64,000 nt of DNA from Escherichia coli (GTDB taxonomy: Bacteria; Pseudomonadota; Gammaproteobacteria; Enterobacterales; Enterobacteriaceae), in the NCBI RefSeq assembly GCF_044324785.1, contig NZ_CP172127.1; one strand, written 5' to 3'. The notes under the pieces are model-generated. The model did no database searches and was not told where the DNA came from. It saw nothing but the letters and a program-made list of their open reading frames with translations. Position numbers and translations under genes: made by a program. The first letter of the stretch is position 1. Every line of letters begins with the position of its first letter. Below, in pieces: positions 1 through 7,410 of this stretch.

Positions 1-906
1 CCCTTTTTGCGTGTTAAACGCATAATAATAGGTCCCGAGCTGCGGCGGCGTATAAACCTGCCCCGGAATATCCTTCAACAGCTTCTGATACATATTTTTC
101 GGGAAGGATTCGGTGATATCAATATCCCCCGCGAGGTAACGCTTAGTGGCTGCGGATTCCTGATTAATTGGCAAGAAGGTCACTTTTTGCAGTACCGTTT
201 TGGCGTTATCCCAATAATGGGTATTCGGTACCACGACCAGTTTTTCATTGACTACGCGCTCTTCAAGAACATAAGCGCCATTACCGATCAGTTTTCCGGG
301 TTTCGTCCACTCTTTAATGCTTTCTACGTTGGCTTTTTGCACCGGGAAGAAGGCAAAGTTAGCGGTTAAATTCACAAACCACGGCAACGGTTTATCAAGC
401 TGGATTTTCAAAGTATGGGCATCAACTGCGGTGACGCCAAGCTGGTCAGGCGTGGCTTTACCATCAATAATCGCCTGTGCGTTGTTGATTCCCGCCAGCG
501 CGGCAAACCATGCAAATGGCGACAATGTTTTTGGGTCCACCAGACGTTGCCAGCTGTAGACAAAATCTTGCGCCGTTACCGGTGTGCCATCCGCCCATTT
601 TGCGTTATCGCGCAAGGTAAATGTCCAGATACGGTTGTCATTACTTTTCCACTGAGTCGCAACGCCGGGGACAATCTCCCCTTTCTCGTTCTGATTCACC
701 AGTCCTTCAAACAGATCGCGAATGACCTGAATCTCTGGCAGGCCCACGGCTTTAGCGGGATCCAGCGACGCAGGTTCATCTTTAATGTGGCGCACCAACT
801 CCTGCTTCTCTGCCAGTACTGTGCCGCTCGGAACTTCTGCAGCATACGAAAGAGAAATGCTGCTGACCAACAGCGCACAACACGTGACTGAAACAGAGTG
901 CTTCAT
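1..906 (-). CDS. mppA: Periplasmic murein tripeptide-binding protein, N-terminal part; 3' end lies beyond the window start
   Basis: Minus-strand translation from the ATG at 904-906 gives a signal peptide followed by an OppA-family substrate-binding protein; absent from the ORF track because it runs off the window. Plus-strand ORFs 7-891 are antisense artefacts. Confidence 0.8.
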   Translation of the reverse strand, partial: MKHSVSVTCCALLVSSISLSYAAEVPSGTVLAEKQELVRHIKDEPASLDPAKAVGLPEIQVIRDLFEGLVNQNEKGEIVPGVATQWKSNDNRIWTFTLRDNAKWADGTPVTAQDFVYSWQRLVDPKTLSPFAWFAALAGINNAQAIIDGKATPDQLGVTAVDAHTLKIQLDKPLPWFVNLTANFAFFPVQKANVESIKEWTKPGKLIGNGAYVLEERVVNEKLVVVPNTHYWDNAKTVLQKVTFLPINQESAATKRYLAGDIDITESFPKNMYQKLLKDIPGQVYTPPQLGTYYYAFNTQKG

Positions 907-1242
907 AAGTTTCCCTCTAACCGACATTAAAATTGATGCGTAATTATTTGTTTCGCCTTAAAGAAATGCAAACAACTTCCATCAAAAAAGTGACAAAGGA
1001 AGCATCAAATGTTTTAAGTATCAATATATCAAATCAGATTTAGCGTAAATAATAGTCTCCAAAATGCGGTAAAGCACATAGAACTCCGAACACTACGTTC
1101 GGGCTTCGCACGTTCAAACCCGTTTTCGGTATCATAATCAGCATCTGTCGCCATTGTGCGAAGAATAAAAAATGACCAAAACGTTGAAAGGAACTGAGAA
1201 TACGTTAAGAGAAGAATTAAATTAATGTATCAGCAAGTAGTG

Positions 1243-2142
1243 CTAAACAGCACCTTTATACTTCAGCCTATCTATAAATAATGAGAATGCCGAGCCAGCA
1301 TGTCGACGGTGTGGATAGTACAGGTGATAACCGGGTAAATCTGGTGTGAATTTATCCAAAACACGTATCAGTTTTTTTTCTTTAATAGCCCGCTCAACCT
1401 GATCATAAGGTAGATACGCCAACCCATGCCCATCAATTGCAGCATCAATGATCAGGTCTATCGTATTCAGTAAAAGCTGACCTTCCATGCGAACACGAAC
1501 TTCACGTCCACCGCGTATTAATCTCCAGCGATTTGCTGTACCCGATGTGGGAAGATACAAATTAATTGCCTGATGATCTATTAATTGTGACACTGACGTT
1601 GGAGCACTTCGACGAGAAAAATAATCCGGTGAGCCAACAATAGCCATTGGTATATCTGGCCCGATTCGAATGGCGATCATATCTTTATCCATCTCCCCAC
1701 CCAGACGGACGCCTGCATCAAAACGTTCAGAAACGACATCGGTCAAACCATAATCAATGGTAAGCTGGATATCAATTTCAGGATGCGATTTCAGGAATGT
1801 GCGCATAGCTGGTAACAATATCGTTTTTGCTGCATGTTCTACAGTAGTAATACGTATTGTCCCGGATGGGCGGTTCTGCAGATCGCTCAGGGATGTCAGG
1901 GCAGAATCTATGTCATGCAACATAGGGCCAAGAACAGACAAAAGATGCTCGCCCGCTTCAGTGGGTACAACGCTGCGCGTGGTTCGCGTCAGAAGCCGCA
2001 ATCCTAATCGTTCTTCTATACGGCGCACTATCTGGCTTAAAGCTGACTGCGCCATGCTCAGGCGGGCTGCTGCGCGAGTGAAGCTACGCTCCTCTGCAAC
2101 GACGACAAACGCCATCAGATCAGCGATTTCTTCACGCTTCAT
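1243..2142 (-). CDS. pgrR: LysR-family transcriptional regulator (PgrR/YcjZ)
   Basis: 299 aa; N-terminal helix-turn-helix (SFTRAAARLSMAQSALSQIVRRIEERLG) typical of LysR regulators; divergent from the ycjY operon. Confidence 0.85.
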   Translation of the reverse strand: MKREEIADLMAFVVVAEERSFTRAAARLSMAQSALSQIVRRIEERLGLRLLTRTTRSVVPTEAGEHLLSVLGPMLHDIDSALTSLSDLQNRPSGTIRITTVEHAAKTILLPAMRTFLKSHPEIDIQLTIDYGLTDVVSERFDAGVRLGGEMDKDMIAIRIGPDIPMAIVGSPDYFSRRSAPTSVSQLIDHQAINLYLPTSGTANRWRLIRGGREVRVRMEGQLLLNTIDLIIDAAIDGHGLAYLPYDQVERAIKEKKLIRVLDKFTPDLPGYHLYYPHRRHAGSAFSLFIDRLKYKGAV

Positions 2143-2163
2143 TCAGTATCTCCATACAATCTA

Positions 2164-2210
2164 TTAATCATTTAAATGATAGGTCTAATCATGATTTTGG
2201 GTCTAATCAA
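2164..2210. promoter_or_regulatory. Cluster of palindromes and direct repeats in the pgrR/ycjY divergent intergenic region; candidate LysR-type operator
   Basis: Perfect palindrome ATCATTTAAATGAT (2167-2180), palindrome AATCATGATT (2187-2196), and direct repeat GGTCTAATCA at 2182-2191 and 2200-2209. Confidence 0.4.
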
Positions 2211-2267
2211 CTTAATGATCAATATCTATAGTGATATCACCAACCGTCAAAACGAACCGACAACTCC

Positions 2268-3200
2268 ATGAGGAACGGAATGATGAATAATAAAGTCAGC
2301 TTCACTAACAGCAATAATCCAACCATCTCTTTGTCTGCAGTGATCTATTTCCCTCCAAAATTTGATGAAACCCGTCAGTATCCGGCAATTGTGGTATCTC
2401 ACCCAGGTGGGGGCGTTAAAGAGCAAACGGCCGGAACCTATGCCGAAAAACTGGCGGAAAAGGGATTTGTCACTATTGCTTATGACGCATCTTATCAAGG
2501 TGAAAGCGGCGGCGAGCCGCGTCAGTTAGAAAACCCATACATTCGTACTGAAGACGTCAGTGCCGTGATTGATTACCTGACAACGCTTTCTTATGTCGAC
2601 AATACCCGAATTGGTGCGATGGGAATTTGTGCCGGTGCAGGATATACAGCCAATGCTGCAATTCAGGATCGCCGCATCAAGGCCATCGGTACTGTTAGTG
2701 CGGTCAATATTGGTTCGATGTTCCGTAATGGTTGGGAAAACAATGTGAAATCTATTGATGCCCTACCATACGTTGACGCGGGTTCAAACGCCCGAACCAG
2801 CGATATTAGCAGCGGAGAATACGCCACTATGCCACTGGCACCAATGAAGGAGTCCGATGCGCCGAACGAAGAACTGCGTCAGGCCTGGGAGTATTACCAC
2901 ACCCCTCGCGCGCAGTATCCAACAGCACCGGGTTACGCTACTTTGCGCAGCCTTAACCAGATTATTACCTATGATGCTTACCATATGGCGGAAGTGTACC
3001 TGACTCAGCCGATACAGATTGTGGCGGGCAGCCAGGCAGGGAGCAAATGGATGAGTGACGACCTGTACGATCGAGCATCAAGCCAGGATAAACGCTATCA
3101 CATTGTTGAAGGCGCAAACCATATGGATCTTTATGACGGCAAAGCCTATGTGGCTGAAGCAATTTCAGTATTAGCTCCGTTCTTTGAGGAAACTCTGTAA
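2268..3200 (+). CDS. ycjY: Alpha/beta-fold hydrolase with Cys in the nucleophile elbow (GICAGAG), YcjY-like
   Basis: 310 aa; G-x-C-x-G nucleophile elbow; first gene of the operon divergent from pgrR. Confidence 0.75.
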   Translation: MRNGMMNNKVSFTNSNNPTISLSAVIYFPPKFDETRQYPAIVVSHPGGGVKEQTAGTYAEKLAEKGFVTIAYDASYQGESGGEPRQLENPYIRTEDVSAVIDYLTTLSYVDNTRIGAMGICAGAGYTANAAIQDRRIKAIGTVSAVNIGSMFRNGWENNVKSIDALPYVDAGSNARTSDISSGEYATMPLAPMKESDAPNEELRQAWEYYHTPRAQYPTAPGYATLRSLNQIITYDAYHMAEVYLTQPIQIVAGSQAGSKWMSDDLYDRASSQDKRYHIVEGANHMDLYDGKAYVAEAISVLAPFFEETL

Positions 3201-4132
3201 TGAAACATATTCAAATCCGCAATAGTGATATGGCCTGGCATATTGCTGCCAATATTCAGTTTCCACCAAATTTTGATGAGTCAAAACAGTATCCGGCGAT
3301 TATCAGCGTCCATCCTTTTGGCAGTTGTAAGGAGCAGACGTCTGGCAATATCTATGGCAAGGCATTGGCTGAAAAAGGCTATGTCGTTCTCGCTTATGAC
3401 GCCAGTTTCCAGGGAGAATCTGGTGGGGAGCCTCGTTGGATAGAAGATCCGACACAGCGCGTTGAGGATATTAGCCGTGTTATCGATTATGCAGTAACTC
3501 TGCCATATGTTGATGCTGAACGCATTGGCGTGCTGGGTGTGTGTGGGGGGGGTGGCTATGCCATTAATGCCGCGCTGACAGAAAAACGAATTAAAGCTGT
3601 AGTGAGTATTACGGGTGTTAATATCGGGCGTCTTTTTCGAGAAGGTTTCAGCAATTACGATCCGATTGGCGCATTGAATGCAATGGCGTCGCAACGAACC
3701 AAAGAGGCTCGTGGTGGAGAATTACAGATCAACGAATTACTTCCCGCCAGCCTGGATGCAGCAAAAGCCCATGGACTGACCGAACGCGATGTTTATGAAG
3801 CAACTGACTACTATAAAACACCACGCGGGCAACAACCGGGAGGTGCGACAAAAATGTTGTTCTCACATGCACAGAAAACGCTGGCCTGGGATGCCTTCGC
3901 ATTTACTGAAGTGTTACTGACTCAGCCGGTGATGGTAGTAGTTGGTGAAAAAGTCGGTGCCTTCGGTGCTTATCGTGATGGACTGGAAGTCTATGGCCGG
4001 GCGATGGTTTCGCAGGATCGTCAGTTAGTTTCGTTACCCGATTTCTCACATTATGAACTGTATGACAAACCGGAAGCAGTTCAGGAGGCGCTGGAAAAAG
4101 TTATTCCTTTTTTCAACACCCATCTGGGATAA
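3200..4132 (+). CDS. Tandem paralog of ycjY: alpha/beta hydrolase with Cys nucleophile (GVCGGGG)
   Basis: 310 aa, roughly 45% identical to the upstream gene by eye; stop/start overlap TAATG at 3198-3202 suggests translational coupling. Likely the intact form of the locus I recall as a pseudogene (ymjD) in K-12. Confidence 0.7.
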   Translation: MKHIQIRNSDMAWHIAANIQFPPNFDESKQYPAIISVHPFGSCKEQTSGNIYGKALAEKGYVVLAYDASFQGESGGEPRWIEDPTQRVEDISRVIDYAVTLPYVDAERIGVLGVCGGGGYAINAALTEKRIKAVVSITGVNIGRLFREGFSNYDPIGALNAMASQRTKEARGGELQINELLPASLDAAKAHGLTERDVYEATDYYKTPRGQQPGGATKMLFSHAQKTLAWDAFAFTEVLLTQPVMVVVGEKVGAFGAYRDGLEVYGRAMVSQDRQLVSLPDFSHYELYDKPEAVQEALEKVIPFFNTHLG

Positions 4133-4137
4133 GTTTC

Positions 4138-4788
4138 ATGAGAAATATTATGAAAAAAGTACTCATTCTTGGTGCTGGCGGTCAGATAGCCCGCCATGTG
4201 ATTAATCAACTGGCAGATAAACAAACCATTAAACAAACTTTATTTGCTCGTCAGCCAGCAAAAATACACAAACCCTATCCAACTAATAGCCAGATTATTA
4301 TGGGGGATGTACTGAATCATGCAGCACTGAAGCAGGCCATGCAGGGACAGGATGTTGTGTATGCCAACCTTACGGGGGAAGATTTAGATATTCAGGCAAA
4401 TTCAGTGATCGCTGCGATGAAAGCCTGTGATGTTAAACGTCTGATCTTTGTTCTTTCCCTCGGTATTTATGATGAAGTTCCAGGAAAATTTGGCGAATGG
4501 AATAATGCAGTTATTGGTGAACCCCTAAAACCATTCCGCAGGGCTGCGGATGCAATTGAGGCTTCTGGACTGGAATATACAATTCTTCGCCCTGCCTGGC
4601 TGACTGATGAAGATATTATTGATTATGAGCTTACCTCACGCAATGAACCATTCAAAGGTACGATCGTATCACGTAAGAGTGTCGCCGCATTAATTACAGA
4701 TATCATCGATAAACCTGAGAAACACATTGGTGAGAATATAGGCATCAATCAACCCGGGACTGATGGCGATAAACCCTTCTTCATGTAA
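4138..4788 (+). CDS. NAD(P)-binding Rossmann protein (NmrA/atypical-SDR-like)
   Basis: 216 aa; N-terminal VLILGAGGQIARH dinucleotide-binding motif. Probably the intact counterpart of the K-12 pseudogene ymjC. Confidence 0.65.
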   Translation: MRNIMKKVLILGAGGQIARHVINQLADKQTIKQTLFARQPAKIHKPYPTNSQIIMGDVLNHAALKQAMQGQDVVYANLTGEDLDIQANSVIAAMKACDVKRLIFVLSLGIYDEVPGKFGEWNNAVIGEPLKPFRRAADAIEASGLEYTILRPAWLTDEDIIDYELTSRNEPFKGTIVSRKSVAALITDIIDKPEKHIGENIGINQPGTDGDKPFFM

Positions 4789-5078
4789 ATCAATTATATA
4801 GCTACCATCGTACTGTACTATGTGCAGTACGATTTATTAAACTTATTAAGGTGAACTGATCAATCAGATGCGATTAACATGTGTAGAACCAGTAAGAATA
4901 AAATACGCCATGTATATAACATTACGACAATTCTAATATCTGCACATCAATGAAAATGCAAACAACTTCTGGCAAAAAAGTGATACAAGATCGATGACAT
5001 AGCGTTGAAGAAAAGGATTTGATAATCCGCAAAATTTGCACAACACTGCCTGTAATACTTCCTGAACCAGAGACGATC

Positions 5079-5807
5079 ATGACCGTAACCCGCCCACGCG
5101 CCGAACGCGGCGCATTTCCGCCCGGAACAGAACATTACGGACGTTCATTATTGGGCGCGCCGTTAATCTGGTTTCCTGCCCCTGCAGCCAGCCGCGAAAG
5201 TGGTTTGATTCTGGCTGGCACTCACGGTGATGAAAACTCTTCGGTCGTCACGCTCTCCTGTGCTCTGCGGACGTTGACACCTTCTTTGCGCCGTCATCAT
5301 GTGGTGCTGTGTGTAAATCCTGACGGCTGCCAGTTGGGGTTACGGGCCAATGCTAATGGTGTGGATTTAAACAGAAACTTTCCGGCGGCGAACTGGAAGG
5401 AAGGTGAAACCGTTTATCGCTGGAACAGCGCCGCTGAAGAACGTGATGTCGTTTTACTGACAGGTGACAAACCTGGCTCCGAACCTGAAACCCAGGCGCT
5501 GTGCCAGCTTATACACCGCATTCAACCTGCCTGGGTGGTCTCATTCCACGATCCACTGGCCTGTATTGAAGATCCCAGACACAGCGAATTAGGCGAATGG
5601 CTAGCCCAGGCGTTTGAATTGCCTCTGGTAACCAGCGTCGGTTATGAAACACCTGGCTCTTTCGGTAGTTGGTGTGCGGATCTCAACCTGCATTGCATAA
5701 CCGCAGAGTTTCCGCCCATCTCCTCCGACGAAGCCAGCGAAAAATATCTCTTTGCGATGGCAAACTTGCTGCGCTGGCATCCTAAAGATGCAATTCGCCC
5801 GTTGTGA
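5079..5807 (+). CDS. mpaA: Murein peptide amidase A (gamma-D-Glu-Dap amidase)
   Basis: 242 aa from the internal ATG at 5079 (MTVTRPRAERG...); the ORF-track start at 5019 is an upstream in-frame extension. Confidence 0.85.
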   Translation: MTVTRPRAERGAFPPGTEHYGRSLLGAPLIWFPAPAASRESGLILAGTHGDENSSVVTLSCALRTLTPSLRRHHVVLCVNPDGCQLGLRANANGVDLNRNFPAANWKEGETVYRWNSAAEERDVVLLTGDKPGSEPETQALCQLIHRIQPAWVVSFHDPLACIEDPRHSELGEWLAQAFELPLVTSVGYETPGSFGSWCADLNLHCITAEFPPISSDEASEKYLFAMANLLRWHPKDAIRPL

Positions 5808-7372: not shown

Positions 7373-7376
7373 GTTA

Positions 7377-7410
7377 ATATGCCTGATGGTGTTGCACCAT
7401 CAGGCATATT
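7377..7410. terminator. Bidirectional stem-loop between the convergent tpx and tyrR genes
   Basis: 15-bp inverted repeat ATATGCCTGATGGTG / CACCATCAGGCATAT. Confidence 0.7.

Follow-up and report, generated by a model that had tools for sequence, protein, structure and literature searches.

The near-repeat found upstream of mppA and mpaA in Escherichia coli is, in all likelihood, an insertion scar: a piece of the ancestral spacer between these two divergent genes was doubled when a cassette carrying the LysR-type regulator gene pgrR inserted into it. The segment bracketed by the two copies is missing in relatives, these relatives present a collinear empty site with a single copy, and the inserted DNA is foreign, the three features together identifying an insertion-generated flanking repeat. 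The analysis was based on a 64-kb stretch of E. coli DNA (hereafter the window, Table 1) and on the corresponding loci of other genomes.

The two copies start 3990 bp apart, both on the + strand, and are identical at 31 of their 37 positions; two stretches, 16 nt (AAATGCAAACAACTTC) and 11 nt (CAAAAAAGTGA) long, match exactly and in register. A sequence-only reading of the window had already picked up this near-repeat and was accurate about the 16-bp block, about the distances to the genes (copy 1 is located 58-94 nt upstream of the mppA ATG at 906 on the - strand, copy 2 89-125 nt upstream of the mpaA ATG at 5079) and about the orientation of the copies, which is the same in absolute terms and opposite relative to the two genes. 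The positions it gave (957-991 and 4949-4985) were 6 and 2 nt too low, and its second block of 10 bp is corrected to 11 nt. It had also judged the likeness to be beyond chance in 64 kb, and this judgement holds: with up to three mismatches allowed, the two-block pattern matches copy 1 and copy 2 only, no third copy of the motif is present within the window, and 100 dinucleotide-preserving shuffles gave 0 matches. Beyond the copies, the 60 flanking nt on each side aligned locally no better than shuffled sequence (p 0.67-0.99), and since the similarity stops at the 37-nt edges on both sides, a longer original duplication was rejected.

The motif resembles the REP/BIME, ERIC/IRU, box C and RSA elements in being a short conserved intergenic sequence present more than once, but it differs from them by its restriction to one locus, the absence of any palindromic structure and its copy number, with a median of two and a maximum of four places per genome across 5,418 E. 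coli genomes. On these counts, and with two sites in the window, a dispersed repeat family was rejected; the widespread family that the sequence-only reading had envisaged as a threat to its interpretation was not encountered in these genomes. A structured RNA was rejected as well, since no Rfam family matched the motif in a covariance-model search, the single sub-threshold hit falling inside pgrR.

Table 1. Features of the mppA-mpaA locus in the window, followed by the conserved blocks of the uninterrupted spacer (numbered along the spacer)
Feature	Coordinates	Strand	Remarks
mppA, 5' part	1..906	-	gene runs off the window; ATG at 906
mppA-proximal unique part of the ancestral spacer	907..963	-	5' UTR, ribosome-binding site, -10 region; collinear with spacer 1-57
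predicted mppA sigma-70 promoter	943..972	-	-35 TTTGCA 972-967, 18-nt spacer, -10 AATAAT 948-943
copy 1, left insert junction	964..1000	+	AAATGCAAACAACTTCCATCAAAAAAGTGACAAAGGA; first 30 nt a clean duplicate, last 7 partly decayed
inserted DNA, 3.95 kb (3,953 bp)	1001..4953		missing from the mppA-mpaA spacer of 76 other species and of 173 E. coli genomes
pgrR (ycjZ), LysR-type regulator, part of the insert	1243..2142	-	gene calls, NCBIfam/RefSeq annotation
operator-like region, pgrR/hydrolase operon	2163..2223		dyad ATCATTTAAATGAT 2167-2180; repeated TCTAATCA / TTAATGATCAAT units
cargo operon of the module	2268..4788	+	two alpha/beta hydrolases and an NmrA-like SDR
alpha/beta hydrolase ycjY	2268-3200	+	gene calls, annotation
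second alpha/beta hydrolase	3200-4132	+	gene calls, annotation
NmrA-like SDR	4138-4788	+	gene calls, annotation
copy 2, right insert junction	4954..4990	+	AAATGCAAACAACTTCTGGCAAAAAAGTGATACAAGA; 1 change from the ancestral sequence in the window, 0 in K-12
mpaA-proximal unique part of the ancestral spacer	4991..5078	+	collinear with spacer 95-182
conserved blocks of the mpaA-proximal part	ATTTGAT 5017-5023; TTTGCACAACACTGC 5035-5049	+	76-species alignment
mpaA, murein tripeptide amidase	5079..5807	+	NF007897, 479 bits
conserved block AATTATTTGT	spacer 37-47		invariant or nearly so
conserved block AAATGCAAA	spacer 58-66		invariant or nearly so
conserved block CTT	spacer 70-72		63-75 of 76 species
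conserved block AAA then TGA (whole: AAAnKTGAT)	spacer 80-82 and 85-87		63-75 of 76 species
conserved block ATTTGAT	spacer 121-127		invariant or nearly so
conserved block TTTGCACAACACTGC	spacer 139-153		76-spacer alignment

The neighbourhood of mpaA was compared among 80 species, each represented by one genome, and both genes were retrieved at 79 loci. At 76 of these, mppA and mpaA are adjacent and divergent, separated by an uninterrupted spacer of 138-316 nt, the commonest length being 184 nt, with about 182 nt in Escherichia. This arrangement is shared by E. albertii, E. whittamii, cryptic Escherichia lineages, Citrobacter and Enterobacter, and further by Leclercia, Kluyvera, Klebsiella, Raoultella and Salmonella, among others. 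Alignment of the upstream regions across Enterobacteriaceae, a check suggested along with the initial observation, revealed a motif that is conserved and single-copy in the uninterrupted spacers; where the 37-mer is recognisable, there is one copy per species locus, the exception being the cassette-bearing locus of Escherichia sp. E1V33. In the closest relative, Escherichia sp. MOD1-EC7003, whose mppA-mpaA flanks are about 95% identical to those of the window, the spacer corresponds base for base to window 907-1000 followed by 4991-5078 and has a single motif at its centre; the window is thus this very spacer split by 3,953 bp. The same holds for the uninterrupted spacers of the closest relatives, whose left flank, single copy and right flank are collinear with window 907-1000 and 4954-5078, and whose positions 58-94 are found at both insert junctions of the window.

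The empty site also occurs within E. coli, where an uninterrupted spacer is present in 173 of 5,426 complete genomes (e.g. IAI39, CE10 and ST648) and the left insert end in 5,244 of them. The extent of the duplication is best seen in O145 RM9873 and VCSW7, in which the first 30 nt of the two copies are identical (30/30), the overall identity reaching 35/37 in O145 RM9873; the original duplication therefore measured at least 30 and probably 37 bp. Both copies are present in K-12, where copy 2 has kept the ancestral sequence and is located within the annotated ymjC ORF remnant. The K-12 locus (L081) is devoid of the DNA corresponding to window 3255-4143 and 4289-4948, which leaves ymjD and ymjC as remnants of the second hydrolase and of the SDR. 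Like K-12, about 46% of E. coli genomes lack both segments; on its right, the second K-12 deletion stops within about 5 nt of where copy 2 begins, and the annotated YmjC ORF ends inside this copy.

The four-gene module that makes up most of the insert is mobile and not bound to this locus. Homologues of PgrR with 87-89% amino-acid identity are scattered among Klebsiella, Raoultella, Kluyvera, Enterobacter, Citrobacter and Salmonella, and the same gene order (pgrR, two hydrolases, SDR) is observed at loci L082-L087. In K. variicola, pgrR is associated with both hydrolases and the SDR on contigs bearing plasmid-type genes (ParB, SSB, TacAT), and in Raoultella the module occupies an unrelated chromosomal site; the nucleotide identity of the Klebsiella plasmid and Raoultella chromosomal copies with the window is 79%, over 1243-4859 only. 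More distant versions, at about 68% nucleotide identity, are carried by plasmids of Agrobacterium, Rhizobium and Kozakia. None of the copies on the Klebsiella and Rhizobiales plasmids or on the Raoultella chromosome adjoins mppA or mpaA. The G+C content of the insert is also lower (36-51%) than that of the right flank formed by mpaA-ycjG-tyrR (50-56%), so that both its composition and the presence of its module on plasmids and elsewhere mark the inserted DNA as foreign. Among the species loci examined, the cassette is distributed in E. coli and in one other Escherichia lineage, E1V33 (L003, 5374-8000), in which it is 97% identical to that of the window, the flanking mppA and mpaA-tpx being just 88-91% identical; this difference indicates an acquisition by homologous recombination between Escherichia lineages, the left crossover being apparently inside copy 1.

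Within the module, the two alpha/beta hydrolase genes (2268-4132) are tandem paralogues, with in-register nucleotide repeats spaced by 911-917 nt and 70-76% identical. On the K. variicola plasmid-like contigs (L082 and L084, 9154-13606), a second and more distant module, composed of a LysR regulator, a hydrolase, an NmrA-like SDR and an OYE flavin oxidoreductase, is located beside the pgrR-like one. On the other side of the E. coli insert, the genes following mpaA are ycjG, tpx and tyrR, and a perfect 16-bp inverted repeat with a 3-nt loop (AATATGCCTGATGGTG / CACCATCAGGCATATT) at 7376-7410, between the convergent tpx and tyrR, presumably acts as a bidirectional terminator.

The ends of the insert give little sign of a discrete mobile element. 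Neither a transposase nor an integrase was found among the insert ORFs, and no recombinase among the four genes; searches for terminal inverted repeats and for additional copies of the insert ends were equally negative, and 1001-1242 and 4789-4953, at the two ends, each occur as a single copy in E. coli. No donor was found for the ends 1001-1242 and 4860-4953, the Klebsiella and other plasmids sharing just 1243-4859 with the window. In some RefSeq genomes, PGAP calls a 75-nt pseudogene fragment of QueH (epoxyqueuosine reductase) at about 1071-1145 on the - strand, in the left non-coding end, for which an HMM search provided no confirmation; a hairpin at 1086-1102 (CCGAACGTAGTGTTCGG), downstream of pgrR, overlaps this fragment. 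As the ends look like ordinary non-coding DNA and as queH was called there, the insert would represent the capture of a random foreign fragment, as these features suggest, and not the displacement of a discrete element.

The repeats mediate precise loss of the cassette, CP131_Sichuan being K-12 minus the cassette. On both sides of the motif these two genomes are identical, for 1,100 nt leftwards and 1,400 nt rightwards, where 8-39 differences are counted between other pairs of E. coli; the cassette is missing from CP131_Sichuan. The single copy of the latter is chimeric: it follows K-12 copy 1 up to CAT, then K-12 copy 2 from GTGATACAAGA...tcgatG, including the neighbouring G variant of K-12 copy 2, which locates the crossover inside the 11-nt block. 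This allele is present in four genomes. CAT by itself is not diagnostic of excision since O145 RM9873 and VCSW7 carry it in both copies, and the excision is accordingly deduced from the CP131_Sichuan/K-12 comparison and no other. The single-copy alleles of GF4-3, 2014C-3075 and IAI39 (phylogroup F) could be ancestral or secondary.

The position of the motif within the spacer was considered in an alignment of the 76 uninterrupted mppA-mpaA spacers, which displays sharply bounded conserved blocks on a variable background (Table 1). A consensus scan called an mppA-facing sigma-70-like promoter in the window as well as in the uninterrupted spacer of locus L001; its predicted hexamers match the consensus at 9 of 12 positions and end 37 nt upstream of the ATG. 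The -10 hexamer (spacer 37-42) is invariant in 76/76 species, the -35 hexamer (spacer 61-66) has four invariant positions and two others kept in 70/76 and 64/76, and positions 49-56 between them are variable. We infer that the conserved blocks at spacer 37-47 and 58-66 are likely to be the -10 and -35 of the mppA promoter. The predicted -35 falls inside copy 1, which would extend from about -28 to -64 relative to a predicted start near 936 and is probably the working upstream half of the predicted mppA promoter. Within the motif, the conserved centre formed by CTTC and AAAAAGTGA would be located at about -40 to -58 (the CTT(C)/AAAnKTGAT block), a position suited to an UP element or an activator site. 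The absence of mppA from the list of RpoD constitutive promoters (PMC3946193) is compatible with the need for an activator.

On the mpaA side, the only conserved candidate promoter, read from the sequence (TTGATA 5019-5024, 17 nt, AACACT 5042-5047), was not called by the consensus scan; relative to its predicted start near 5054, copy 2 would occupy about -64 to -100. Copy 2 is most likely a passive relic, presumably neutral, a distal regulatory role being less probable. It is almost unchanged from the ancestral sequence, as selection would also have left it, but this preservation is uninformative, given that the event is recent and that decay would hardly show within 37 nt. The initial interpretation of the motif as a shared cis-element or common promoter module was right insofar as the motif is a piece of the ancestral control region, containing the predicted mppA -35 and a block conserved in 76 species; it does not stand for the pair, as the copies are alike by duplication at insertion and are not operators independently kept or acquired. 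In its uninterrupted form, the 182-bp spacer resembles other shared control regions of divergent gene pairs, in that each gene has its own conserved -10/-35 blocks and the centre is conserved too; unlike these, it is split in E. coli, with a doubled central element and 4 kb between the promoters.

Three other explanations of the pair were weighed against an insertion scar. It is hardly conceivable that the cassette and its two repeats are ancestral and that the one-copy spacers derive from repeated precise deletions. Such deletions do occur, as CP131_Sichuan illustrates against K-12, but independent identical losses would be needed in Citrobacter, Enterobacter, Klebsiella, Kluyvera, Leclercia, Salmonella, E. 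albertii, E. whittamii and others, for a cassette that is confined to E. coli and to E1V33 (by recombination in the latter, with 97% against 88-91% identity) and whose module is plasmid-borne elsewhere. The possibility raised in the sequence-only reading, that the motif is an operator of PgrR, here taken as direct control of both flanking genes by this LysR regulator, is very improbable. The two copies do bracket pgrR, but this position is expected of a duplication at insertion. Conservation of the motif extends over 76 species without pgrR in the spacer, and the motif predates pgrR at the locus; the module resides on plasmids of Klebsiella, in the chromosome of Raoultella and at other unrelated loci without any link to mppA or mpaA. 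The hallmark of LysR-type operators is a dyad of the T-N11-A type, and the conserved dyads of the module occur at 2163-2223 only, nothing similar being found within the motif. This region is nearly invariant among the E. coli, Klebsiella and Raoultella modules, otherwise 79% identical, and it combines with its dyad three TCTAATCA-like units, an organisation typical of a LysR-type site, which makes it the probable PgrR operator. The genomic SELEX results given in PMC5934670 agree with this location: they place the target of PgrR here in the ycjY/ycjZ spacer, at a distance of more than 1.1 kb (copy 1) and 2.7 kb (copy 2) from the motif, and list none in mppA-proximal or mpaA-proximal DNA. According to the same account, PgrR represses the ycjY-ymjD-ymjC-mpaA operon and ycjG, which would speak for direct control by PgrR; the control of mpaA is reported to pass through the ycjY-ymjDC-mpaA transcript, most simply by read-through from the module operon into mpaA. 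The PgrR (YcjZ) regulon and its ycjY/pgrR operator are attributed to Shimada et al. 2013 as cited in PMC5934670 and PMC5493296. Distribution, sequence and the SELEX data as presented in PMC5934670 led us to reject the motif as a PgrR operator.

The third explanation deserves more credit, although we hold it to be unlikely: both copies would be working sites of one regulator, not necessarily PgrR, co-ordinating the uptake of murein peptide through mppA and its breakdown through mpaA, and the duplication would have been retained, or the insertion tolerated, as each gene kept its operator. The pattern of conservation favours it, CTT (70-72), AAA (80-82) and TGA (85-87) being kept in 63-75 of 76 species when neighbouring columns vary freely, as do the location of this conserved centre between two predicted divergent promoters, the absence of mppA from the RpoD constitutive promoters (PMC3946193), which fits a need for an activator, and the unchanged ancestral sequence of K-12 copy 2. 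Against it, the recent duplication fully accounts for the near-identity of the copies, and the block fits mppA much better, being at about -40 to -58 of this gene but, on the mpaA side, at about -69 to -87 of the start predicted there; moreover, K-12 copy 2 lies within the remnant of an ORF, downstream of an operon with read-through. The consensus of a known regulator was not recognised in the motif: by eye, those of sigma-54, PhoP, PurR, NagC, CpxR and the mar-box did not fit, and the GTGA of the motif has no matching TCACA half-site for CRP. For ycjZ/mppA, ChIP-seq in ETEC H10407 is reported to give a CRP peak, with CGTGAACCGGGTCACA as its predicted site (PMC4287617), but this site was not found in the pgrR/mppA spacer (907-1242) with up to three mismatches. 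In a more developed form of this explanation, which we view with comparable scepticism, CTTC-N7-AAAnKTGAT would be a putative operator coupling murein-tripeptide uptake and breakdown across Enterobacteriaceae, the cassette could have become fixed in E. coli only because a long staggered duplication left each gene with an intact copy, and the spacer would be a recurrent landing site.

The mppA-mpaA spacer has been hit independently by foreign DNA in Salmonella enterica subsp. arizonae (L022, 4848-8000) and diarizonae (L023, 4562-8000), in which another insert of 3.2-3.4 kb, related between the two, separates mppA from mpaA. The insert of subsp. arizonae encodes a protein of the cytolethal distending toxin B family (379 bits), with an ORF on each side of it; the promoter blocks on the mppA side have disappeared, and the break in subsp. 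diarizonae is inside the motif region. In E. coli MFDS1019527 (L091, 1-9069), an integrated prophage encoding a tyrosine integrase, NinB, a replicative helicase and a LexA-like repressor leaves about 66 nt of the mppA 5' end beside the spacer and mpaA.

Under the insertion scar, mppA and mpaA would ancestrally have been divergent genes served by one control region of about 182 bp with a single motif. In the E. coli lineage, 3.95 kb of foreign DNA would have entered this spacer, duplicating 30-37 bp of it (58-94) and leaving one copy at each junction. The inserted module is self-contained: it comprises the LysR regulator pgrR and, in a divergent operon, two alpha/beta hydrolases and an SDR. The duplicated stretch would carry the predicted mppA -35 together with the upstream element conserved in the family, CTT(C) then AAAnKTGAT, so that copy 1 may keep the predicted mppA promoter complete to about -64. 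The direct repeats also act as substrates for a homologous recombination that removes the cassette precisely. The comparisons demonstrate the duplication, the empty sites, the mobility and foreign origin of the module and one precise deletion; the assignment of the promoters, the neutrality of copy 2 and the route by which the duplication arose are inferred.

In several respects the locus behaves like transposon target-site duplications or attL-attR pairs and the repeats of islands: two direct copies of host sequence bracket DNA that is missing in relatives, the empty site has exactly one copy, and recombination between the copies restores this empty site. It differs from transposons by the lack of a transposase and of terminal inverted repeats and by a duplication of 30-37 bp instead of a short fixed length, and from integrase-mediated genomic islands by the lack of a tyrosine or serine recombinase and by its target, a promoter spacer and not a tRNA. 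Transposases typically duplicate 2-14 bp of their target; the size observed here is far above this range, which, like the lack of a transposase, an integrase and terminal inverted repeats, tells against the insertion scar. A staggered or two-ended illegitimate join is favoured over transposition, and the duplication may have been generated at a staggered break, by a two-ended illegitimate join between sister chromosomes or, as a further possibility, by the Campbell-type entry of a circle already carrying the motif sequence. The duplication of flanks is in itself a well-known phenomenon, and a literature search found no paper describing the one at mppA/mpaA.

The feature is, in all likelihood, an ordinary though instructive insertion scar, and it invites caution, since a striking motif shared upstream of functionally linked genes can be the scar of a duplication. 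It leads to another reading of the K-12 locus, in which pgrR and ycjY-ymjD-ymjC form a horizontally acquired, self-regulated hydrolase/reductase module placed inside the mppA-mpaA control region. K-12 and the CP131-type strains, as well as the empty-site strains of phylogroup F, offer natural isogenic material for testing the rewiring of mppA and mpaA. The reported control of mpaA by PgrR would most simply be a by-product of this insertion, and not an ancient peptidoglycan-recycling circuit.
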